From IMG/VR virus record IMGVR_UViG_2585427777_000013: a stretch of DNA of 31,922 nt; one strand, 5' to 3'. The position numbers and the translations under genes are program-made. Shown here in pieces: positions 7,202 through 27,338 of the stretch. Each line of letters starts with the position of its first letter. The first letter of the stretch is position 1. This stretch comes from a virus. Lineage: Duplodnaviria; Heunggongvirae; Uroviricota; Caudoviricetes. The notes beneath the pieces are model-generated. The model did no database searches. It was not told the origin of the DNA and saw only the letters and a program-made list of their open reading frames with translations.

Positions 7202-8230
7202 TTATTTCACCTGCACCACCACAAACTCATCCGGATCCGGCAGCACCATCAGCGGCGCGGACTGCGTCATGGTGAATTCACAGGACGGATCGCCCACGGT
7301 CAACCAGTGTTTCGGGTAACGGGAAGAAGCCACCACTCCTTCGGACAACGCCTGTGCATCCTTAATGGCTCCATAGCAACGAATCCCCTCTGCTGCCGTA
7401 TTCCCCAGCACCAGCGTGCCCTCCGGCAGATAACGTTTTTCGGTACCGTCCTCTGCCACATAAGACGTTTTCGCTACCACAATGGCCAGATCGCCGTAAT
7501 ACCCCTTGAAGGATACCACTGCGCCCAGATCTTTCACTGCCGTTTCGAGTTGTGAATTTGAACCGCGACGGGTATCCAGTTTTTCGCGGAAAAGCTTAAA
7601 GCCATTCAGCAGACGCCAGACGGTACCGTCCATAATGGCAATATTCACAAGACCACTGGCCTGATCACAGAAAAGGTCGATATCATATGTCGGGTCGAAC
7701 GTGTCACGATCCTGTTTTGACCACTCCTTACCGCTACCCTGTATGATGTTATTCTTCGTCGATCGGCCAAAATCGACTTCAATTTTCTCGAACTGGTCTC
7801 CTTCCATCGTATATTTGCCATACAGCACGGCATTCACCGCCTGCATTTCTTCCACCTGCACAATAGCGTGCTCTTCCTGTTTGAGGTTATCAGTGATGAT
7901 ACGCAGACGACGGTAGGCCGGGTCGTTCAGCTGAGCCGGATCTTCACCGGGAAGGCGTTCAACCGCCTGCTGGTAATTAAATTCGTGTTTGGGCTTGACG
8001 TAGCCCGGACGTAACACGCGGGTTTCACCCCCACGATGACGCAGCACTTTTCCTTCAACGACCGGGGAGACATAGGCCGCCACCGGCGTTTTTCCGGTAA
8101 TTTTGTCCAGCATCACCTCTTCGGTGTGGAAATTCACCGTACGGCGGAAAAACAGCTCCAGAAACAGCGCACGGAATTTCACTTTTTGTTCGGTATAACC
8201 GAGTAACTGGCGGGTCGTAAACAATCCCAT
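7202..8230 (-). CDS. E: Major capsid protein E
   Basis: 342 aa, MGLFTTRQLLGYTEQKVKFRALFLELFF..TVNFHTEEV.LD matches lambda gpE. Confidence 0.92.
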   Translation of the reverse strand: MGLFTTRQLLGYTEQKVKFRALFLELFFRRTVNFHTEEVMLDKITGKTPVAAYVSPVVEGKVLRHRGGETRVLRPGYVKPKHEFNYQQAVERLPGEDPAQLNDPAYRRLRIITDNLKQEEHAIVQVEEMQAVNAVLYGKYTMEGDQFEKIEVDFGRSTKNNIIQGSGKEWSKQDRDTFDPTYDIDLFCDQASGLVNIAIMDGTVWRLLNGFKLFREKLDTRRGSNSQLETAVKDLGAVVSFKGYYGDLAIVVAKTSYVAEDGTEKRYLPEGTLVLGNTAAEGIRCYGAIKDAQALSEGVVASSRYPKHWLTVGDPSCEFTMTQSAPLMVLPDPDEFVVVQVK

Positions 8231-16032: not shown

Positions 16033-16500
16033 CTAGTTAATACACTGAGTGCGGATATAGTCCTGCGCCCCTTCCAGTTGCTTCTGCATTGTCATCAACC
16101 GCTCTCTGAGGGTGAAATAATCCCGTTCAGCGGTGTCTGCCAGTCGGGGGCCGGTTGCATTATCCACGCGGGCGGTGCCGGTGGCTTCACGCACGGAACC
16201 TGGACAGGTGGCGTTGATACGCAGGCTGCGGCGACCAGCGGCAACGTCAGCGCGCAGAGTTTCATTTTCAGCTCTCGCATCGGCTAACTCCTTTGTGTAT
16301 TTTTCATCCAGCGCAGCAACATCACGCTGACGCTGCTGCATGTCAGTAATGGTTGTGTTTGCCAGCTCCAGCTCTCTGGCTTTTTTATCGCGCTGCGCTT
16401 TGTAGGTGATGGCGTTATCGCGGTAATGATTCAGCCCCAGACTAAGCACACCACAGGCTACCAGCAGGACAATAATCACCACACACAGAACACGGTTCAT
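16033..16500 (-). CDS. Rz: Spanin inner-membrane subunit Rz (i-spanin)
   Basis: [84 protein letters not shown] matches lambda Rz; start at the internal Met (MNRVLCVV..) of the longer track ORF. Confidence 0.88.
16095..16280 (-). CDS. Rz1: Spanin outer-membrane lipoprotein Rz1 (o-spanin), embedded in the +1 frame of Rz
   Basis: [52 protein letters not shown] matches lambda Rz1, with lipobox; lies in a different frame inside Rz. Confidence 0.88.
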
Positions 16501-16599
16501 ATCACCACCAACGGATTGCCCAGACCAGAACAGCAATGGCCACAATACGAATGGCAAATGCCATTGCCCGAATAAGTTCAGCACTCATCTTTTTAAAGT

Positions 16600-16938: not shown

Positions 16939-17472
16939 TTATCTGTCAATTCCCCAGCACGCCAGCGCACTCTCCTGGTCGCGACGGGATACCTGACCGT
17001 AACAGTTGTTTGAGCGAATACGGCAGTCTCTGCCACCGTCCTTAATCCACCAGCGAATCGCTTCGCATGCTCCCCTGCGATCACCTGCATTAATTCGTCT
17101 GTAAAACGTCGACGGGAAACACTTACCGGGACCAATGTTGTACGGACAGAATGACGCGATCCCCGCTTTCTGGGGTTCGGTCAGCGGCACTCTGATGTTT
17201 TTCTCCACCCACGCCAGCGCTTTATCACGCTCAATGGCGTTAACCTGGTCGCATTTTTCCTTCGACAACTTCATGCCCGGAACGACAGGTTTGCCATCCA
17301 CCATGATGGCACCACGGCAGATGGTCCAGATACCCGCACCATCACGGTATGCCGTGGTGTGGTTGCCTTCTTTTTCATCCAGAAACTGGTCGAGAATTTC
17401 AGGCGCAGACGCACCAGCGGCAATCAGCGCCAGAACGGCAGCCGACAGGCCGTATCTGATTTTTGCGTTCAT
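16939..17472 (-). CDS. R: SAR endolysin (T4-lysozyme-like GH24 muramidase with N-terminal signal-anchor-release domain)
   Basis: N-terminal weakly hydrophobic Gly/Ala-rich segment (YGLSAAVLALIAAGASA), then an E-x8-D-x5-T catalytic triad (EGNHTTAYRDGAGIWT); ATG start. Confidence 0.85.
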   Translation of the reverse strand: MNAKIRYGLSAAVLALIAAGASAPEILDQFLDEKEGNHTTAYRDGAGIWTICRGAIMVDGKPVVPGMKLSKEKCDQVNAIERDKALAWVEKNIRVPLTEPQKAGIASFCPYNIGPGKCFPSTFYRRINAGDRRGACEAIRWWIKDGGRDCRIRSNNCYGQVSRRDQESALACWGIDR

Positions 17473-18340: not shown

Positions 18341-18556
18341 TTACTCTCCCCGCGCCGCCTTACGACGGTCCTCTCTGATTTTGAAATACAGGTTAGTCAG
18401 ATATGTCAGCAGCCCAAACAGCAGACTTCCCAGTACGCCTATTGCCGCCCACTGAGACGGGGAAACCCTGTCCAGCAGCTGCAGGAACCAGTAGCCCGTC
18501 CCCACCGCTGACGTGGTGTATGACACACCTGTTGTGATTTTTTCCATCTGGTACAT
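18341..18556 (-). CDS. S: Holin, phage-21 S-type (pinholin-like) with dual-start motif
   Basis: 71 aa, ..[50 protein letters not shown] matches S21/EssD as remembered; begins MYQM, giving two in-frame Met starts. Confidence 0.85.
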
Positions 18557-19269: not shown

Positions 19270-21213
19270 TTACGGGTTATTCACTTCCACTGTTATACTT
19301 TCAATCAGCACCGTATACGTCGCCGCTTTTGTGATATCCGTTACACGTAATTTGTCTGCCGCAAAAGAACCTACCGGAGACTGCGACAGCATGAACGGTG
19401 CACCATCCTGACCATCAATCACCGGCGTCACCTGAATGCTGTTATTACCGGCAAAACGGAAACCCAGCGTATGCCATTCGTTGTCAAATGCGCCGAATGA
19501 CCCCAGCTTCGTGTTCTGGTCAGCGTTACCCTTGTGGTACATCACGTTGAGGTCTGTGGCATCGCTCTGTACGTAAAACGACGCCAGCAGATTGTTACCG
19601 GCATTACCTTCCAGTGTGACACCCTGAGGCAATGAAGAAACCGGCCAGTACAGCGCCAGTGCGTACTGATTAGCCGTAAGCGCGCCATCGAGTTTAAAAC
19701 GACAACTGACAAGACCACCTTTACCCAGCAGGTCCGCACCATTACCAGCATCATGCTCAAGGTACCAGGGGGCTCTTCCTGTTTCCTTGGTCAGTTTCAT
19801 TGCCTTACCCCCGCTGGCTCCGGCATCATCCACGATTTGAGCCTTGCCACCTCCAGCAGCCCAACCCTGTGGTGTCAACCGTCCTTCAGACTCAGATGCC
19901 CGGTAAGCAAATAGCGTACTCATCGTCGTGGTGTCTGCGGGTGGCGTGGACGGTTTTGATGGTGTATCAGGTGACGGCTTCTCATCCGGTGGTGTCACGG
20001 TCTGCCCGCGCATCAATTCAGCCGTGCGCCCTGCATGGAGCATAATAGCTGAGGCCAGACGGTCTGAAATGACGCCCCTGCGTGCCCATGAGCTGAAATG
20101 GCTGTCACGCTGTGTCGAAACAAAACTGCCCTGGGTTCGGGATGCTGCACCGTAATACCCGACAGCCACAATATCCGGGTCTTCCGCCGGAGCATTCGTT
20201 GGCGTGCTCTGTCCATTCTCATCCGTCAGGAACGGTACAAAGAAAATATTCTGTGCTTCCCTGCCCTTGTAACCGCCATATACCGCCTCATATTTATCGG
20301 CGTTAAGATTCTTCCAGTAATACGTGGTGTCACCACAAATCCACGGCACCGAGCCAGCACTTCCGCCAACACACTGTGCAGAATATGCAGCCATATCAGC
20401 CCTGAACTGCTGCACCATAGTGGTAAACAGGCCGCTGTGCTGCTGACTGCCGTCCGCAAGATCATTTTCCCCCTGCATCCATACCACGGCCAGAAGCCTG
20501 TTTTTCGGGTTCTTCGACAGCGCCGCTTTTGTACGGAAGAGAAAATCCTGATACAGCGGTTTACCCACTCCCCAGCGGGCTGAATTTGCCGATGCGCCAG
20601 ACGTTTCGCTGAACGTGCCGTCATTCCCCACGGTTAAACCAGCCCCGCCACGGCAACAGGGCACCAGAAGAATCCCGGCATTCTGCGGGATATAAGGCAG
20701 AAGTTTTTTGGCAATATGCAGCCCCTGACCGACAGTCCCGTACTGGCCCTTACTCAGGTCTGCATGAGGATGGTTAAGTGCGCTCATGTCCTGAACATCA
20801 TGCAGACAGTGGTCTGCCGGAATAACGTCATTGTATGCACAGGTATCACCACCCGGCGTCACAGTGCTGCGACGGGCCAGCTGCTTAATACGGGAGTCAG
20901 GGCGATCATAGGTCTCCGGCAGAGGAAGCCCCTCACCATAGGCCATACCGTTCGACTGCCCGGCCAGGGGAATAACGTAGTAATACTCCGGTTCAGTGGT
21001 AGCCACTCCCGGAGAGCCACCAGCCCCTGTGTCGGGCACAACCACAGGCGTGGTCACATCACCCTCTGCGGCAATGGCCTGCATCAGTGTATAAGGCGTG
21101 ATAGCCACAGGACTGCCAAACGGCTGCCAGCCTTCCTTCAGTTTTTGTGTCAGTCGCTCCGCAAGGTCTGACGGCGACGCCGCCCTGACCACGTCATAGT
21201 GTTTAAATGCCAT
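19270..21213 (-). CDS. nanS: Prophage sialate O-acetylesterase (NanS-p-like; DUF1737 N-terminus + SGNH/SASA esterase + C-terminal lectin-like domain)
   Basis: Starts MAFKHYDVVRAASPSDLAERL (DUF1737-like); GQSN esterase block in YYYVIPLAGQSNGMAYGEG; strong GGAGG ribosome-binding site before the ATG at 21213; sits between the tRNA/stx locus and lysis genes as in Stx phages. Confidence 0.82.
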   Translation of the reverse strand: MAFKHYDVVRAASPSDLAERLTQKLKEGWQPFGSPVAITPYTLMQAIAAEGDVTTPVVVPDTGAGGSPGVATTEPEYYYVIPLAGQSNGMAYGEGLPLPETYDRPDSRIKQLARRSTVTPGGDTCAYNDVIPADHCLHDVQDMSALNHPHADLSKGQYGTVGQGLHIAKKLLPYIPQNAGILLVPCCRGGAGLTVGNDGTFSETSGASANSARWGVGKPLYQDFLFRTKAALSKNPKNRLLAVVWMQGENDLADGSQQHSGLFTTMVQQFRADMAAYSAQCVGGSAGSVPWICGDTTYYWKNLNADKYEAVYGGYKGREAQNIFFVPFLTDENGQSTPTNAPAEDPDIVAVGYYGAASRTQGSFVSTQRDSHFSSWARRGVISDRLASAIMLHAGRTAELMRGQTVTPPDEKPSPDTPSKPSTPPADTTTMSTLFAYRASESEGRLTPQGWAAGGGKAQIVDDAGASGGKAMKLTKETGRAPWYLEHDAGNGADLLGKGGLVSCRFKLDGALTANQYALALYWPVSSLPQGVTLEGNAGNNLLASFYVQSDATDLNVMYHKGNADQNTKLGSFGAFDNEWHTLGFRFAGNNSIQVTPVIDGQDGAPFMLSQSPVGSFAADKLRVTDITKAATYTVLIESITVEVNNP

Positions 21214-21395: not shown

Positions 21396-21460
21396 CGCCC
21401 GCCACTCACTGCGGGCTTTTTTTTGCCCATAGAAAAGCCCCTCCGGAGAGGGGCTTTTTA
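21396..21460 (+). terminator. Two adjacent terminator-like hairpins; the second is bidirectional
   Basis: GCCCGC-cactcact-GCGGGC followed by TTTTTTTT; then AAAA-GCCCCTC-cgga-GAGGGGC-TTTTT. Confidence 0.5.
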
Positions 21461-21699
21461 CAGTGGTAGTGTAGACAATTTTGCATGGTGCCGGGTGCCT
21501 CCCGGTGAGTTCAGTATCAGCACCTGAACCCGCACAGAAAGGATAAGGGTCGGTGACAAAACACCAGTTGCTGATTGCCCCTCCGCACAGGGGGATTCAC
21601 CATGCCAGTTTCTTTTAACAAACTCCCCGCAAACCAGACAACAGTCAACCGCCTGAATTGTGAGGTATTTAAAAATTTCAACGGGTAACTGATACCCTG

Positions 21700-21861
21700 C
21701 TAATCGCCTGATGCTTTCTTTTTCAGCAACGGGAAAGCAACAACCACCACACCCGCCACCAGCACACCGTCAGCCAGCACTGACATTATCCGGCTGCTGA
21801 AGTCCACCATCACCACCATCACTACCAGAAACAGCAGGAGCGCAACCACAGCCAGACGCAT
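21700..21861 (-). CDS. Possible small hydrophobic peptide (53 aa, two predicted membrane segments)
   Basis: Hand-translated ORF MRLAVVALLLFLVVMVVMVDFSSRIMSVLADGVLVAGVVVVAFPLLKKKASGD starting 9 nt after the TerB-like stop; below the ORF-track size cutoff; weak ribosome-binding site. Confidence 0.3.
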   Translation of the reverse strand: MRLAVVALLLFLVVMVVMVDFSSRIMSVLADGVLVAGVVVVAFPLLKKKASGD

Positions 21862-21869
21862 TTTTACCG

Positions 21870-22301
21870 TCACAGATGATTCTCCAGACGAAGGCCCAGA
21901 ACACCGGCAATCTCTTCCAGCACCTTGCGCTCTTCCGGCTCTATTTCGCCGTCTGCTTCGGCAATGGCCACCGCCACATCCAGCACGTCTTCCGCTTCAC
22001 GCGTATCGTGTTTCACATCCTCGATCTCACGTAACGCCGCTCGACGACCAATTTTAAAGTTCGTATCCAGCTGACCGATAATGGTTGCGCTAATCGCATT
22101 AATTTCTGACGTAAACGCGGACAACGCAGGCTGGTTACGCAAGACCTGCTCGATCTTCGCTTTCTCTGAAGCCTCACATTCACCATCTGCATAGGCCACC
22201 AGATAGGCAGCATTAATAACCGCCTGTGCCAGATCACGTTTCTCAAACTTTTTAATTTCCACTGCCGCTCGGCGGGCTTTTTTACCAAAAATACCAAACA
22301 T
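21870..22301 (-). CDS. TerB-domain protein (tellurite-resistance TerB-like)
   Basis: Two ADG..E motifs (AYADGECEASEKAKIEQ and AEADGEIEPEERKVLEEIAGVLGL) typical of TerB; start at the internal ATG with AAGGA ribosome-binding site. Confidence 0.6.
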   Translation of the reverse strand: MFGIFGKKARRAAVEIKKFEKRDLAQAVINAAYLVAYADGECEASEKAKIEQVLRNQPALSAFTSEINAISATIIGQLDTNFKIGRRAALREIEDVKHDTREAEDVLDVAVAIAEADGEIEPEERKVLEEIAGVLGLRLENHL

Positions 22302-22433
22302 CGTGACGTTCCTTTGGGTGGGTGAGCCAACGCCCGGGAGCGATCTGCCCACAGAGAAAGTCACACTGACCACTCCGTAAGCTCACCCCCGAAAGGCTCT
22401 GTGGTTGATATGCGCCGGGCGTGGCGCGGATAC

Positions 22434-22457
22434 AAAAAAGGCCCGCAAAAGCGAGCC
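22434..22457 (-). terminator. Intrinsic terminator just downstream of the tRNA cluster
   Basis: Minus-strand hairpin GGCTCGC-TTTT-GCGGGCC (one G-U pair) followed by TTTTTTG. Confidence 0.4.
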
Positions 22458-22471
22458 GGGAAAAATAAGTC

Positions 22472-22548
22472 TGGCGCGTTGTACTGGATTCGAACCAGTG
22501 ACCGATTGCTTAGAAGGCAATTGCTCTGTCCGGCTGAGCTAACAACGC
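22472..22548 (-). tRNA. argO: tRNA-Arg, anticodon UCU
   Basis: Hand-folded cloverleaf: acceptor GCGUUGU/ACAACGC, D-arm GCUC..GAGC, anticodon stem AUUGC/GCAAU with loop CUUCUAA, T-arm ACUGG-UUCGAAU-CCAGU, encoded CCA. Confidence 0.85.
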
Positions 22549-22561
22549 AGGATACAGATAA

Positions 22562-22638
22562 TGAACCGCCTTCGGGGACCCGAACTCCGCGCAACCAGCT
22601 TCGAAGGCTGGCGCTCTTTCCTGATGAGCTAATGGCGG
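22562..22638 (-). tRNA. argN: tRNA-like gene, anticodon loop CUUCGAA (UCG, Arg); imperfect, possibly degenerate
   Basis: Perfect D-arm and anticodon arm (CCAGC-CUUCGAA-GCUGG), but an A-A mismatch in the acceptor stem, an A-C mismatch in the T-stem, T-loop UUCGGGU (G at position 58) and UCA instead of CCA at the 3' end. Confidence 0.45.
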
Positions 22639-22645
22639 TATGTGA

Positions 22646-22721
22646 TGGTGGCCCTTGCTGGATTTGAACCAGCGACCTGGCGATTATGAGTCGCTCGCTC
22701 TCACCACTGAGCTAAAGGGCC
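22646..22721 (-). tRNA. ileZ: tRNA with anticodon CAU, most like tRNA-Ile2 (lysidine, reads AUA); Met not excluded
   Basis: Hand-folded cloverleaf closely resembling E. coli ileX: acceptor GGCCCUU/AAGGGCC, anticodon loop CUCAUAA, T-arm GCUGG-UUCAAAU-CCAGC, encoded CCA. Confidence 0.8.
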
Positions 22722-22749: not shown

Positions 22750-23463
22750 TCAATAATCAAGCCCTTGCCTGGATACATATCTGTCTGGCGGGAAGCCATA
22801 ATAGCGGTGAAATACAGAAATAAAGTAGGACCTGCTTGAATAACCGCATTTTTCTGCTATAGCCTGTCCATATCCATGCCGGGAACATAACATATTTACA
22901 GCAACACGCATCCGCTCTTCCAGCAACAAGCGACTGAACATGCCCCCTTCATTTTTCAGTTTTGTCTTTAACAAACTCTCACTCATATGCAACTGTAGAG
23001 CAATCGCACAAAGCGTCCAGCTTGCTGATATATCTGTCTGAATTATCGCCCTGACTTTGGCACTTATGCTGGATAAACATCCACTTAAAAACAATGACAT
23101 CCGTTCATCTGTTTCAAACAGAGACAGGCAGGCCATCATAAGAAACATATCCGTGGCCTCTCCGGAAAATCCCTGGCTGGTAATTAAAGCCGCAGCCAAC
23201 GCAGGATTGTTGGGTTCCAGCAACAGGTAAAGCGGAATGTCAGTCAGACGAGTCCTCGTCAGCTTATGCTGACTTTCCAGATATTGACTTACGACGGATT
23301 CGCTTATATCGACAATTTTAACTTTGCCATAATGCATAAGGAAAAGCTCCCTGATGCATTTGGTGGCCAGAACAACTGAGCCTGGCTTAAGTGACAACGT
23401 ATCCTTTTCAAGAAAAATATTAATTGGGGAGCAAACCATGATAACTGAACAGACAACAGCCAT
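22750..23463 (-). CDS. AraC/XylS-family transcriptional regulator
   Basis: 237 aa; C-terminal AraC-type HTH signature (..LLLEERMRVAVNML..GYGQAIAEKCGYSSRSYFISVFHRYYGFPPDRY); AT-rich; ATG start. Confidence 0.8.
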   Translation of the reverse strand: MAVVCSVIMVCSPINIFLEKDTLSLKPGSVVLATKCIRELFLMHYGKVKIVDISESVVSQYLESQHKLTRTRLTDIPLYLLLEPNNPALAAALITSQGFSGEATDMFLMMACLSLFETDERMSLFLSGCLSSISAKVRAIIQTDISASWTLCAIALQLHMSESLLKTKLKNEGGMFSRLLLEERMRVAVNMLCSRHGYGQAIAEKCGYSSRSYFISVFHRYYGFPPDRYVSRQGLDY

Positions 23464-23596: not shown

Positions 23597-23794
23597 TCAG
23601 GACTGAAGGCGTCTGTAACAACCGCACTGATAGTCTGCCAGACCCACCATAACAAGCTGGGTCAGTATTAACTGGCAGCGTTCGCGTGAAAGGTAAGTAT
23701 TCTGCGCAATCTCCCCGACGGTCGCCGGTTCGGTGACGCTTAATTCATTAAACACCACTCTGGCGGTTTCTGTCATATCCTGCTGTTTTAGCAT
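23597..23794 (-). CDS. Small putative HTH DNA-binding protein
   Basis: About 65 aa from an internal ATG (MLKQQDMTETARVVFNELSVTEPATVGEIAQNTYLSRERCQLILTQL); the longer track ORF begins at a TTG; divergent from the DUF262 gene. Confidence 0.35.
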   Translation of the reverse strand: MLKQQDMTETARVVFNELSVTEPATVGEIAQNTYLSRERCQLILTQLVMVGLADYQCGCYRRLQS

Positions 23795-23913: not shown

Positions 23914-23937
23914 ACACAAAAAACCGCCTGGCGGCGG
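23914..23937 (-). terminator. Weak terminator-like hairpin on the minus strand in the HTH/DUF262 intergenic region
   Basis: Minus-strand CCGCC-gcca-GGCGG followed by TTTTTTTG; stem is only 5 bp. Confidence 0.3.
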
Positions 23938-24047
23938 GTTTAAGCTGTGTGGCGTAGTAACCACTCTTAACACGATATAATATTTTTTGCGTACGCGTTA
24001 TAGTTTTCTTACAATCTATTTCCAACTCCAATTAAAGGAACAGTGAT

Positions 24048-25205
24048 ATGACCACACTCAAAGAACTCAAAGAAGAGCTTGCTCAGATTCAAGATGAAAA
24101 CGCGAAAAATAGAAAAAAAGCTGAAATTGCAGCCTTGGTCACTTCTGCCGACAACGAGATTAGGCTTGCTCAGAGAAATATTGGATACAACGTACGTGAA
24201 TGGACCGTTGAATTAATTGTACAAAAGTATGGCAATAATCTTGAAACTGACAAAAACGAACTTTTTATTCCTGATTATCAACGCGATTACAAATGGGATA
24301 TCAAAACAGCCTCTCGATTCATCGAAAGTATATTATTAGATTTTCCAATCCCGTACCTCTACATCTCCGACGTATTTAATGAAGATCCTGAGTTGGATGG
24401 TCGTGTAGAAATTATTGACGGTTCACAAAGGATTCGCTCAATTTACTACTTTTGGAACAATCAGTTTGAATTGAAAGACTTAAAAGAACTCAAAAGTTTA
24501 GAGGGCTTCAAATTTTCAGATCTTTTGGCTAGCCGCCAGAGGCGATTTTTAAGGGCATCACTAAGATTTATTGAATTGAAAGGTGATGTTGAGGAGCAAC
24601 ATAGAAGAGATTTATTCGAAAGAATAAATTCAGGTGTTAAGAGACTGGAAGCGATGGAGGTTAGACATGGTTCAGATGCGGCCACTTCAATTTTCTATAG
24701 GGATGTTGTGACTCCTTGCTCAACAAATCCACTTTTCGCTAGTCTAGCTCCATTATCAGACCGGAAACGTTCGAATGGCGATCATCGTGAGTTAGTTTTG
24801 AGATTTTTTGCATACTTAAATGATTTAGAAAATTATAAGGGTTATGTCGCTCCTTTTATTGACAATTATCTTAATGTTCAGGCCGAAAGGGTCACACAAC
24901 AAGATGTAGACAAATTTAAACATGATTTTGAAAGCATGCTTGCTTTTGTAGATGCTCATTTCCCTATGGGGTTTAAAAAGACACCAACAAGCAAAACCAC
25001 CCCCCGTGCTAGATACGAAGCCATAGCAGTGGGAACTGCTCTTGCCTTAAAAGCCAATCCACATCTACAGGCTCCGGTTATTCCTGTAGGAGACTGGCTG
25101 TTTGGGGAGGAATTTGAAACCATAGTTACTGCTGATAGTGCCAACAACACCAGCCAACTCAAAAACAGAATATTTTATGTCAAAGATAAATTATTAGGAA
25201 TGTAA
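24048..25205 (+). CDS. DUF262 (ParB/GmrS-like NTPase) domain protein with no recognisable nuclease domain
   Basis: 385 aa; DUF262 hallmarks IPDYQRDYKW and IIDGSQRIRSI, plus ..DLFERINSGVKRLEAMEV..; AAGGAA ribosome-binding site; AT-rich; plus strand, opposite to the phage backbone. Confidence 0.8.
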   Translation: MTTLKELKEELAQIQDENAKNRKKAEIAALVTSADNEIRLAQRNIGYNVREWTVELIVQKYGNNLETDKNELFIPDYQRDYKWDIKTASRFIESILLDFPIPYLYISDVFNEDPELDGRVEIIDGSQRIRSIYYFWNNQFELKDLKELKSLEGFKFSDLLASRQRRFLRASLRFIELKGDVEEQHRRDLFERINSGVKRLEAMEVRHGSDAATSIFYRDVVTPCSTNPLFASLAPLSDRKRSNGDHRELVLRFFAYLNDLENYKGYVAPFIDNYLNVQAERVTQQDVDKFKHDFESMLAFVDAHFPMGFKKTPTSKTTPRARYEAIAVGTALALKANPHLQAPVIPVGDWLFGEEFETIVTADSANNTSQLKNRIFYVKDKLLGM

Positions 25206-25207
25206 CT

Positions 25208-25897
25208 ATGAGTTTGATTGATTTAAGAGATGAATACGAAGAAAGAGCAAGAGATATTATGGAATTGCTTTCTCTTGCGTCATCTTTAGAGGCTCAGACT
25301 CAGCAGTTAGATCAGCAAACGCATAAAGATGAAATAGAATCAAATACCCTTAGGGTTAACATTTTAAAATCATCCGTGCACATGATGCTGTACAATCAGG
25401 TTGAAAACACTGCCAGAGGATGCATTGAGTCAATTTATGACCATTTGCAAGATAATGAAGTAAATTACGCATCACTCAGGGAGAAATTCCAAGTAAATAT
25501 CTTGCACCGTATCATTTCAGATAATGAATCGGGAAAATCTCTTTATCAAAAAATTGGTTCCGATATATCTAAAAGGATCATTTCAGCCTCATTAAACATA
25601 CGTAAAGAATTCAATGGTAATGTTTGCAAGTCTGTATTGCACAAAATAACACAAGCTTACGGAATAACTGTTGCAAACTCACCAGAGTGTAGAAATGGTG
25701 TTGACTTAGATTTACTTAAAGATATCAGAAATGAGCTGGCACATGGAAGTACCAGCTTTTCTAAAAAAGGTCAAATAGACCCTTTAGAAGAAGTCAAATC
25801 GAGGTCAGAAAGAATTGATCTATATTTGCGTTTATTAATCAACTCAACAGAAAATTATATTACCTCTAACGGGTATTTATCCCCTCAACATGTCTGA
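25208..25897 (+). CDS. Predicted HEPN-domain protein (R-x4-H motif), partner of the DUF262 gene
   Basis: 229 aa; C-terminal LKDIRNELAHGSTSF contains R-x4-H; ATG 2 nt after the DUF262 stop with AGGA ribosome-binding site; predicted helical. Confidence 0.6.
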   Translation: MSLIDLRDEYEERARDIMELLSLASSLEAQTQQLDQQTHKDEIESNTLRVNILKSSVHMMLYNQVENTARGCIESIYDHLQDNEVNYASLREKFQVNILHRIISDNESGKSLYQKIGSDISKRIISASLNIRKEFNGNVCKSVLHKITQAYGITVANSPECRNGVDLDLLKDIRNELAHGSTSFSKKGQIDPLEEVKSRSERIDLYLRLLINSTENYITSNGYLSPQHV

Positions 25898-26906
25898 TAA
25901 ATGTTTCCCCTATTATCTGACCAATTATAGGGGGAACAGCATTTCCAATCATTGTCCCCAATTTTTGGAATGAAAAAGGCGTCTCCTTGTCAAGGAATTT
26001 ATAATCCATTGGAAAGGATTGCAAAATCGCAGCTTCACGCAAAGTTATGGCGCGATTTTGCTCAGGATGGCCAAATCGTCCATTTCCATATCCATAACAC
26101 TGGGTAGTTATCGTAGGGCTAGTATCGTCCCAAACCATCCGTCCATAAACGCTTTTATAGGTAGCACCTGAATTCTTTTTATGACAGTCTGCTCTAATTT
26201 CTTCAGGCCAGTCATCCCACGTACCACCAGGTAAAGAATGCATGATTCGTTTAAGATTGATATCCATCAATTTAGGCGAACGATGCAAGGGATCGCTTTC
26301 CAGCTTCTCACCTGCCCCTACTTTTGGCAACCTACCAATAGCATCCTTAACAGTAACTTTACGGCTAACTTTTTTTTGATCAAGGCTGATCGGCCCCAAT
26401 TGGGAACCAATTAGAATTAATCTACGTCTATTTTGAGGTAAGCCATACTCAGAACATCTTACAACGTCGTACCACAAATGATATCCAAGAGTCTTTAATG
26501 CACTAACAAACCCTTCAAAAACCTTATGGTTTCTAAGTTGAGGAACATTCTCCATCGTCACAAGCTCTGGCATTACATCACTTACAAGCCTTTGAAACTC
26601 ATATAACAAACGCCACTTTGTATCGTCTTTACGGCTATTTGGATTACGATACTTGGAAAACGGTTGGCAAGGAGCACATCCAGCAAGCAATCTAATATTT
26701 CCTTCCTTGAACATAGCAGACACATCGCAGGATTGCAGTTCTGTAACTGACTGATTAATGAACTGCGTTAAAGGATTATTGCTCTCAATAGCAAAACGGC
26801 AGGATTCATCAATATCAATACCATGAGAAACCTCAATCCCGGCTTTTTTTAGCCCAAAAGTTAAGCCCCCCGCACCACAAAAAATGTCTACTGCCTGAAT
26901 GTTCAC
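25866..26906 (-). CDS. DNA (cytosine-5)-methyltransferase, no restriction endonuclease gene recognised nearby
   Basis: 346 aa; motif I DIFCGAGG, motif IV GCAPCQPFS, motif VI ENV, motif VIII QNRRR; GTG start with GGAGA ribosome-binding site; 3' end overlaps the HEPN gene 3' end by 32 nt on the opposite strand. Confidence 0.9.
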   Translation of the reverse strand: MNIQAVDIFCGAGGLTFGLKKAGIEVSHGIDIDESCRFAIESNNPLTQFINQSVTELQSCDVSAMFKEGNIRLLAGCAPCQPFSKYRNPNSRKDDTKWRLLYEFQRLVSDVMPELVTMENVPQLRNHKVFEGFVSALKTLGYHLWYDVVRCSEYGLPQNRRRLILIGSQLGPISLDQKKVSRKVTVKDAIGRLPKVGAGEKLESDPLHRSPKLMDINLKRIMHSLPGGTWDDWPEEIRADCHKKNSGATYKSVYGRMVWDDTSPTITTQCYGYGNGRFGHPEQNRAITLREAAILQSFPMDYKFLDKETPFSFQKLGTMIGNAVPPIIGQIIGETFIRHVEGINTR

Positions 26907-26969: not shown

Positions 26970-27338
26970 TTACATAGAACTTAAGTCATTGTAGTAAATG
27001 AAAAATGACAAGCAGCCATCAATAAACCCCATTGCTGTTTGCATCTCTTTCCGTATTGTTCCATCTGAACATTTCCGTTTTTTAGCAATAGCGCGTAATG
27101 AGATACCAATAACAAAGTGAGCAATGATCAACTCATACTCTTCGGGTTTATACTTTCGCAACCGAGCCACACAACCGTCTATCATGATACCTTCGTCATC
27201 ATCACACTGGAGACGTGACTTTTTACCGTGTGGTAAAAGCCCCTTGAAGCCTGCTGCTATCGGCTGCCAGTCCACACCACTGTTATCTGCTGCAGCCCAG
27301 GCCCCCCAACGATCTAAAACTTCGTACATATCACGCAT
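26970..27338 (-). CDS. Q: Late-gene antitermination protein Q (Q82/QuuD-type)
   Basis: 122 aa, MRDMYEVLDRWGAWAA..IAAGFKGL..C.DD...I..GC.ARL.K.. resembles DLP12 QuuD as remembered; lies between replication genes and the late region. Confidence 0.7.
   Translation of the reverse strand: MRDMYEVLDRWGAWAAADNSGVDWQPIAAGFKGLLPHGKKSRLQCDDDEGIMIDGCVARLRKYKPEEYELIIAHFVIGISLRAIAKKRKCSDGTIRKEMQTAMGFIDGCLSFFIYYNDLSSM

Follow-up and report, generated by a model that had tools for sequence, protein, structure and literature searches.

A tciA–tciB gene cassette at the stx insertion slot of a lambdoid prophage and its candidate leader RNA

Introduction

The gene pair tciA–tciB takes its names from the tciA-tciB-tciC operon of phage P1. 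It has been annotated as tciA/tciB in Escherichia phage JLK-2012 (GenBank JQ347801) and as 'TciA/TerB-like' in PPyecE_EH1910, and its role was called unknown by the authors of the papers on phage Pollock (PMC4319500) and on a P1-like phage-plasmid (PMC9603915). The relatives of TciA outside phages are better described: ter genes have been linked to resistance against pore-forming colicins and some phages (PMC4319500), and TerB is membrane-associated and found in membrane-surveillance defence systems (bioRxiv 2025.09.30.679545; bioRxiv 2022.05.11.491447). Here, we describe a copy of the pair in a 31,922-nucleotide stretch of DNA of the class Caudoviricetes (IMG/VR record IMGVR_UViG_2585427777_000013), which as a whole is called the window below. 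In the window, tciA and tciB lie where the Shiga toxin (Stx) phage 933W carries its toxin genes stxAB, at the same position as in JLK-2012 and PPyecE_EH1910, and they are preceded by a leader that may be a structured RNA.

The cassette formed by the leader and the two genes is an already known, named and very common phage module. At least 80% of its length is found in 790 of 5426 complete Escherichia coli genomes (about 15%), O157:H7 strains among them, with up to eight matching places per genome. Thus, it is ordinary as a discovery. TciA and TciB are among the commonest E. coli phage accessory modules without an experimentally assigned function, and the interest of the locus lies in what the two proteins do and in a leader motif that matches neither an Rfam family nor the literature searched. 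On balance, we read the interval as an accessory-gene cassette ('moron') of 755 bp within the late operon of an E. coli lambdoid prophage, a judgement of modest confidence that covers identity, slot, module and mechanism jointly.

The insertion slot shared with the toxin genes

Both flanks of the interval are homologous to 933W. Upstream, window positions 22725-22423 are 92.8% identical to the ileZ-argN-argO tRNA genes and the following terminator of 933W; downstream, positions 21663-18333 align to 933W from 46 nucleotides (nt) past the stxB stop codon through nanS-p to S. In 933W, the blastn junctions at 22423 and 21663 fall at positions 2420 and 3749. The features of the interval and its flanks, with the support for each, are as follows.

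22646-22721, minus strand: tRNA-Ile2, anticodon CAT, ileZ-like (ARAGORN, Rfam tRNA model, RefSeq and 933W annotation)
22563-22639, minus strand: tRNA-Arg(tcg) (same four sources)
22472-22548, minus strand: tRNA-Arg(tct) (same four sources)
22431..22457, minus strand: hairpin resembling an intrinsic terminator, GGCTCGCTTTTGCGGGCC, followed by a T-run; 5′ boundary of the slot
22430..21676, minus strand: cassette of leader, tciA and tciB, 755 bp (blastn junctions and junction sequences)
22302..22429, minus strand: leader RNA motif, 128 nt, ending in the Shine-Dalgarno (SD) sequence AAAGGAA (covariance model R1, covariation)
22301..21873, stop codon 21872..21870, minus strand: tciA, TerB-domain protein of 143 amino acids (aa) (Pfam PF05099, PHROG 632, PDB 2JXU)
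21700..21873, minus strand: tciB, DUF3927 protein of 57 aa (Pfam PF13064, PHROG 1470, start-codon conservation, hydropathy)
21425..21634, minus strand: STnc100/PasD-like small RNA (sRNA) gene, downstream flank, outside the cassette (Rfam RF02076, 145.6 bits, E=1e-33)
19270..21213, minus strand: nanS-p, sialate O-acetylesterase, downstream flank (Pfam SASA, DUF1737 and DUF6645; RefSeq, 98%-identical locus)

The tRNA cluster (22472..22721) is thus upstream flank and lies outside the cassette. The terminator at 22431..22457 is common to 933W, where it is annotated as 'terminator upstream of the stx genes', and to phages in which the site is empty. In two such phages, PhiR49_2 and Nil3, the terminator GGCTCGCTTTTGCGGGCC and its T-run are joined straight to AAATGTCTCACAATTCAGG, the join corresponding to window positions 22431 and 21675. 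These junctions therefore delimit the cassette as 22430..21676, a length of 755 bp with short T-runs at both ends; from 21675/21663 on, just upstream of the sRNA gene, the sequence is again homologous to Stx phages. The same slot holds stxA2B2 (1328 bp) in 933W. An earlier note on this DNA, made from the letters alone, had proposed that a TerB gene and a small open reading frame (ORF) occupy the position of stxAB. This is borne out by the homology of both flanks to 933W and by junctions at the stxAB boundaries, which are now defined against 933W and the empty alleles. From these alignments it is nearly certain that the cassette shares the stx insertion slot at nucleotide resolution, and that the slot has three states: empty, stxAB and tciAB.

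The neighbourhood was further examined in 80 close relatives from IMG/VR, the set also used for counts of the tciB start codon and of a duplication in tciB. Among these loci the cassette, with its own upstream spacer, follows either of two tRNA sets and is associated with at least two types of Q. No match to stxA2 was found in any of the 80, in which both reference sets of flank features were found. With boundaries sharp to the nucleotide, a three-state slot should help to trace the swapping of toxin genes among lambdoid prophages and to type stx-negative relatives of Stx phages.

The two proteins

TciA matches the Pfam TerB profile PF05099 over residues 26-138 with E=3.9e-16 and 59.8 bits (cut-off 24.4), PHROG 632 ('tellurite resistance') with E=3e-69, and the Klebsiella KP-TerB structure (PDB 2JXU) with E=6e-8, residues 15-137 aligning to 21-144. 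Its N-terminus is basic. The earlier description of a 143-aa TerB-like protein with two ADG..E motifs is upheld by the PF05099 and 2JXU matches and by the presence of both acidic ADGxxxxxE motifs (AYADGECEASE and AEADGEIEPEE). It is nearly certain, on this homology, that TciA is a stand-alone, soluble TerB-domain protein, and it is predicted to have the TerB fold.

Is the pair, then, a resistance determinant of the lysogen? TciA is homologous in sequence to plasmid TerB, and database names call it 'tellurite resistance protein', which would suit lysogenic conversion to tellurite or metal resistance or to another host stress phenotype. Tellurite resistance needs several ter genes. In the window only terB is present: the neighbours are tRNAs, tciB, the sRNA gene and nanS-p, with none of terZ, A, C, D and E among them, and tciA is no member of a terZABCDE-type operon. 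The pair moreover sits in a late operon without a promoter of its own and is found in lytic phages too. Lysogenic conversion of this kind is therefore very improbable.

TciB matches Pfam DUF3927 (PF13064) with E=9e-20 and 70.8 bits (cut-off 25) and PHROG 1470 ('TciB-like') with E=9e-21. A GTG at 21873 overlaps the tciA stop codon as GTGA, is preceded 8 nt upstream by GGAG and is kept in 80/80 close relatives; TciB is therefore a 57-aa protein translationally coupled to tciA. The same start is used in the RefSeq annotation of tciB in a 99.9%-identical E. coli chromosome. The small ORF had earlier been read as 53 codons beginning 9 nt after the TerB gene. Its two hydrophobic segments are confirmed by hydropathy, and its conservation by the DUF3927 match and the shared GTG, whereas its length and start have to be revised: the ATG at 21861 that gives the 53-aa reading is CTG (Leu) in most of the close relatives, and this start is ruled out.

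The conserved features of TciB are a DF(T/S)xxxMSxLADG core, with an Asp-Gly in the LADG motif, and a WP motif. A short DFSSR turn separates the helices, and basic residues stand at both ends. To judge from these basic ends, TciB would form a hairpin in the inner membrane with both termini inside, the Asp-Gly of LADG being placed within helix 2. The copy in the window carries a 9-nt tandem duplication (~21805-21822, minus strand), shared by 4 of the 80 close relatives, which lengthens the first transmembrane helix by VMV (VVMVVMVDF in place of VVMVDF). Across alleles, the ratio of nonsynonymous to synonymous polymorphism (pN/pS) is 0.05 for tciA and 0.27 for tciB, and thus both genes are under purifying selection and are not chance ORFs.

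The leader RNA motif

The 128 nt in front of tciA (22429..22302) are 81-87% identical between the window and CharmingMan or pPE4, while the coding sequence of tciA is only 57% identical. A covariance model, R1, was built from 22 leaders. It gives the leader of the window 144.5 bits and recovers all tciA leaders at 120-154 bits; the divergent leaders of ChrisDB and of Klebsiella-type phages score 56-71 bits. Weaker second copies (30-69 bits, E 1e-5 to 1e-15) are found elsewhere in the same phages, and each complete one reaches to within 0-3 nt of a different gene's start codon. The genes behind them include the P22_AR_N antirepressor gene ant of 933W (between R and Rz), a KilA-N gene, HNH endonuclease genes and members of unknown families. 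The motif is 110-135 nt long, and its copies outside the window, which are more divergent before unrelated genes, include the following, among others.

933W, 7722-7853: motif copy
sequence record L095, 10294-10425: motif copy
sequence record L089, 3283-3414: motif copy
sequence record L227, 13784-13920: motif copy

A GC hairpin with a U-run lies within a few nucleotides 5′ of every motif copy examined. Within the leader itself the elements are, in order, a hairpin H0, a helix P1, a helix P2, an invariant CUUUC(A/G)G and a helix P4 that ends just before the SD sequence; P1 is a pseudoknot formed between the loop of H0 and a stretch some 85 nt further downstream. A further candidate helix, P3, did not pair consistently across the sequences and was discarded.

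Programs based on minimum free energy (MFE) of a single sequence and RNAalifold disagree with each other and cannot represent pseudoknots, and they were replaced by explicit counting of pairs and a partner-swap test. For the counting, 15 distinct sequences were aligned with MAFFT without regard to structure, and only H0 and P1 were scored, because MAFFT puts P2 and P4 out of register. H0 and P1 together are 98.5% paired, and 6 of their 9 pairs change on both sides, a value reached by 0 of 500 shuffles; controls in which the strands were slid are 11-58% paired and hold 0-1 double-changed pairs. In the partner-swap test with 11 sequence types, complementarity is higher between cognate strands than after swapping: the observed value was reached in 4/5000 permutations for H0, 0/5000 for P1, 0/5000 for P2 and 1/5000 for P4, figures that overstate independence, as the sequences are related.

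None of the 4227 families of Rfam 15 matches the leader, for which no hit on the motif strand falls below E=2.5, and the ant-type copies gave the same outcome; nor was the core sequence found in the literature searched. A loose scan of IMG/VR with a DNA pattern for the motif returned mostly chance matches and was set aside. The sRNAs PasA and PasC are unlikely to be the leader: they adjoin the holin/lysozyme operon and occur only in Escherichia and Shigella, and the core strings of the motif are absent from the main text of the paper that describes them (bioRxiv 10.64898/2026.05.13.724894). We propose with reserve, and at a little under even confidence, that the leader represents a class of pseudoknotted RNAs, acting in cis and so far undescribed, that is placed between a terminator hairpin and the SD sequence and start codon of many unrelated accessory genes of Enterobacterales phages.

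How might such an RNA act? The invariant CCUUUC is complementary to an SD sequence GAAAGG, which suggests a translational switch. The motif could be a general expression switch for phage morons, either riboswitch-like, with CCUUUC as anti-SD, or a processing ribozyme. If it is a true functional RNA, many phage cargo genes would share one regulatory element, and if it is a switch, it would matter for the expression of cargo at the stx slot.

The toxin genes themselves may bear a trace of it. The 5′ untranslated region (UTR) of stx2A (933W 2410-2465) opens with the same 11 nt as the leader, RTATCYGCGCC (ATATCTGCGCC versus GTATCCGCGCC), and it ends in the same SD sequence as the leader of the window (22430-22299), CCAAA(A)GGAAC (CCAAAAGGAAC); these two stretches are all that it has in common with the leader. 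By sequence, the stx2A 5′ UTR looks like an internally deleted copy or remnant of the leader.

Distribution of the pair and its neighbours

A diverse set of 80 IMG/VR loci was collected by local hidden Markov model (HMM) searches through TciB/DUF3927 alone. A TerB gene lies 0-10 nt upstream in 79 of them, and TciB is more conserved than TciA in 63 of these 79. The pair is also found in P1, in the N4-like phages Pollock and As2, in Pantoea phage LIET2, the Erwinia jumbo phage ChrisDB, CharmingMan and Actinobacillus phage pPE4, as well as in prophages of at least 10 enterobacterial genera. The DUF3927 cut-off is passed by four of the five partners scanned from other phages, the exception being that of ChrisDB (14 bits against 25). 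Thus, tciA and tciB are nearly always inherited together, in temperate and virulent phages alike, and their conservation from P1 to N4-like and jumbo phages makes them a good target for functional work. In two Pseudomonas phages, AF (~1940-2140) and Zuri (1943-2146), TerB is followed by a different small single-helix membrane protein with the motif CxxYGxQTERETxYAxFVGCMV, which is not DUF3927; the TerB protein of Zuri is mislabelled as dCTP deaminase.

At the diverse loci, holins of five Pfam families make up 29 of the 71 ORFs just downstream of the pair and lysozymes three more, and the upstream ORFs include three Pfam antiterminator families named for Q. The pair therefore usually fills the interval from Q to the lysis genes, a placement that could mean a functional link to lysis or could be that of a known moron hotspot. 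One form of such a link is a lysis-timing accessory, in which TciB would be holin- or antiholin-like and, regulated by TciA, would tune holin triggering. Besides the share of holins among the downstream ORFs, the size of TciB, which is that of class II/III holins, its two transmembrane helices and its charged C-terminus agree with this proposal, and in CharmingMan and pPE4 the pair lies directly upstream of a holin gene. Yet the pair is far from the lysis genes in P1, Pollock, As2, LIET2 and ChrisDB; the window has nanS-p and three small genes between the pair and S; and the hotspot between Q and lysis would by itself yield the same adjacency. A role in lysis timing is accordingly quite unlikely.

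Only 20 of the 80 diverse loci have tRNA genes no more than 1 kb from the pair. The pair stands inside tRNA clusters in three unrelated types of phage, namely lambdoid phages, P1 (1415-3285) and the jumbo phage ChrisDB (886-3277). The tRNAs of the three types are only 70-86% identical; transfer of a block of tRNAs and tciAB between P1 and lambdoid phages was considered and is not supported, as those of JLK-2012 and P1 share only 73-77% identity.

Expression and possible function

The elements from which expression of the cassette was considered, and the lysis genes downstream of nanS-p, are as follows.

27338..26970, minus strand: Q gene (Pfam PF06530)
23914..23987, minus strand: region resembling pR'/qut/tR' (76% identity to the annotated pR'-qut-terminator of 933W)
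18556..18341, minus strand: P21-type holin gene, downstream of nanS-p
17472..16939, minus strand: lysozyme gene, downstream of nanS-p
16584..16033, minus strand: Rz gene, downstream of nanS-p

The Stx-phage layout described in the earlier note, with Q, tRNAs, nanS-p and lysis genes in succession, is found here as regards the order of tRNAs, nanS-p and lysis genes, but not the adjacency of Q, which is 4.2 kb upstream. The tciA leader contains no sigma-70-like site, and two terminator-like sites lie between pR' and tciA. A terminator-like site at 23937-23924 stands within the pR'/qut/tR'-like region. Lacking a promoter-like site and preceded by terminators, the cassette is most simply read as subject to Q-dependent late expression, and we infer from the sequence that tciAB is expressed late. 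It would be transcribed from pR', presumably that at 23914..23987, under Q antitermination during lytic growth, the leader RNA would govern its translation, and TciB would anchor or partner TciA at the inner membrane.

There, we suggest, tciAB would keep the membrane of the infected cell intact and energised, preserving the proton-motive force until programmed lysis. It might do so by excluding superinfecting phages or pore-forming colicins or by preventing premature triggering of the holin. This proposal is drawn by analogy from the inhibition of phages and the resistance to colicins associated with the plasmid ter operon, from the membrane association of TerB and from the occurrence of the pair in lytic phages; that obligately lytic phages carry the pair suggests that the infecting phage itself gains from it. 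As a mechanism it is possible but somewhat doubtful.

Several points weigh against it. P1 tciA, tciB and tciC are non-essential by CRISPR interference (PMC10695390), the operon is absent from half of the P1-like phage-plasmids (PMC9603915), and the literature searched yielded no experiment on the function of TciA or TciB. P1, N4-like and jumbo phages carry the pair away from their lysis genes, and holin adjacency may thus reflect only the moron hotspot between Q and lysis. Transcripts reading through from the tRNA promoter could allow the pair to be expressed in lysogens. A single-sequence AlphaFold2 model of TciA is poor (predicted local distance difference test score, pLDDT, 56.8; predicted template modelling score, pTM, 0.29), which limits the structural support to sequence homology.

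A different assignment is prophage defence against other phages: TciA would sense the perturbation of the membrane by an incoming phage, and TciB would oligomerise into a pore, killing or arresting the cell and aborting the infection. TerB is paired with transmembrane or pore-forming partners in validated systems (bioRxiv 2025.09.30.679545; bioRxiv 2022.05.11.491447), the same scheme having been proposed for the TerB-containing systems Dionysus, Bunzi and Shango; the ter operon inhibits some phages (PMC4319500), and the prophage carries other defence genes between Q and pR'. On the other hand, no model of PADLOC-DB 2.0 matches the pair, TciA giving only PDC-S48 at E=0.003 without a matched stretch and TciB nothing. 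TciB has just 57 aa and two helices, and tciAB lies behind terminators in a late operon with no promoter of its own. Abortive infection would also be self-defeating in the obligately lytic N4-like and jumbo phages that carry the pair. Anti-phage defence of this kind is unlikely, and protection of the membrane during lytic growth is the mechanism that we tentatively retain for tciAB.

Other features of the locus

Between Q and the tRNAs lie a 3-kb island, the pR'-like region, a TrmB-like helix-turn-helix (HTH) gene and a YdeO-like AraC-family gene. The island (24048-26906), inserted between Q and its pR'/qut region, resembles a defence locus in an unusual place and contains three genes.

26906..25866, minus strand: C5 cytosine methyltransferase
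24048-25205, plus strand: DUF262/GmrSD_N protein (PADLOC NsnA, E=6e-46; PD-T4-2_A, E=4e-27)
25208-25897, plus strand: HEPN protein

The gene for the YdeO/GadX-like AraC-family regulator (22750-23463, minus strand) and the small TrmB-like HTH gene (23597-23794, minus strand) lie between pR' and the tRNAs and may be further cargo; we take them to resemble the prophage-borne acid-resistance regulators of the Psr/PatE type. The AraC gene adjoins tRNAs in an Stx2k phage too.

The STnc100/PasD-like sRNA gene is full-length and stands directly downstream of tciB and upstream of nanS-p; TerB has been listed among the genes near prophage Pas sRNAs (bioRxiv 10.64898/2026.05.13.724894). Between this gene and nanS-p, on the opposite strand (21397-21424, plus), there is a terminator-like hairpin followed by T8, which could be the end of a convergent sRNA; a convergent sRNA has been described at the stx moron site (PMC4104026).

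Comparison with known systems

The closest counterparts of the cassette are phage loci of the same name. P1 tciABC encodes both families in the order seen here, with the stop codon of tciA overlapping the start codon of tciB; its TciA is 53% identical to that of the window and its TciB matches DUF3927 at E=2e-26. It differs in being without the structured leader; as to tciC, a tblastn search with P1 TciC gave no relevant match, and in the window tciB is followed by no small ORF. In JLK-2012, TciA is 99.3% identical and is located between tRNAs and nanS-p (yjhS), as here, but the tRNA set is Asn-Thr-Gly and the Q gene is another one.

The stxAB moron of 933W is likewise a two-gene cassette and fills the same slot, from the tRNA terminator to the sRNA gene and nanS-p, whereas its proteins are unrelated and its stx2 leader is 53 nt long, lacks the structured core and gives no R1 match.

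At the level of proteins, KP-TerB (2JXU) of the terZABCDE operon shares the entire TerB domain with TciA and is of comparable length (151-153 aa against 143 here), but TciA stands alone in a phage and is paired with a 57-aa membrane peptide. Dionysus (DinB and DinC), Bunzi and Shango resemble tciAB in joining a TerB protein to a membrane partner; tciAB differs from them in having no PADLOC match, a much smaller partner and no third gene, and in being borne by phages, lytic ones included.

As regards the RNA, the yybP-ykoY riboswitch, located upstream of TerC genes, offers a loose analogy to the tciA leader. With cis-regulatory leaders and riboswitches in general, the candidate RNA shares a conserved pseudoknotted 5′ leader that ends at the SD sequence; it differs from them in standing before many unrelated cargo genes instead of the genes of one pathway.

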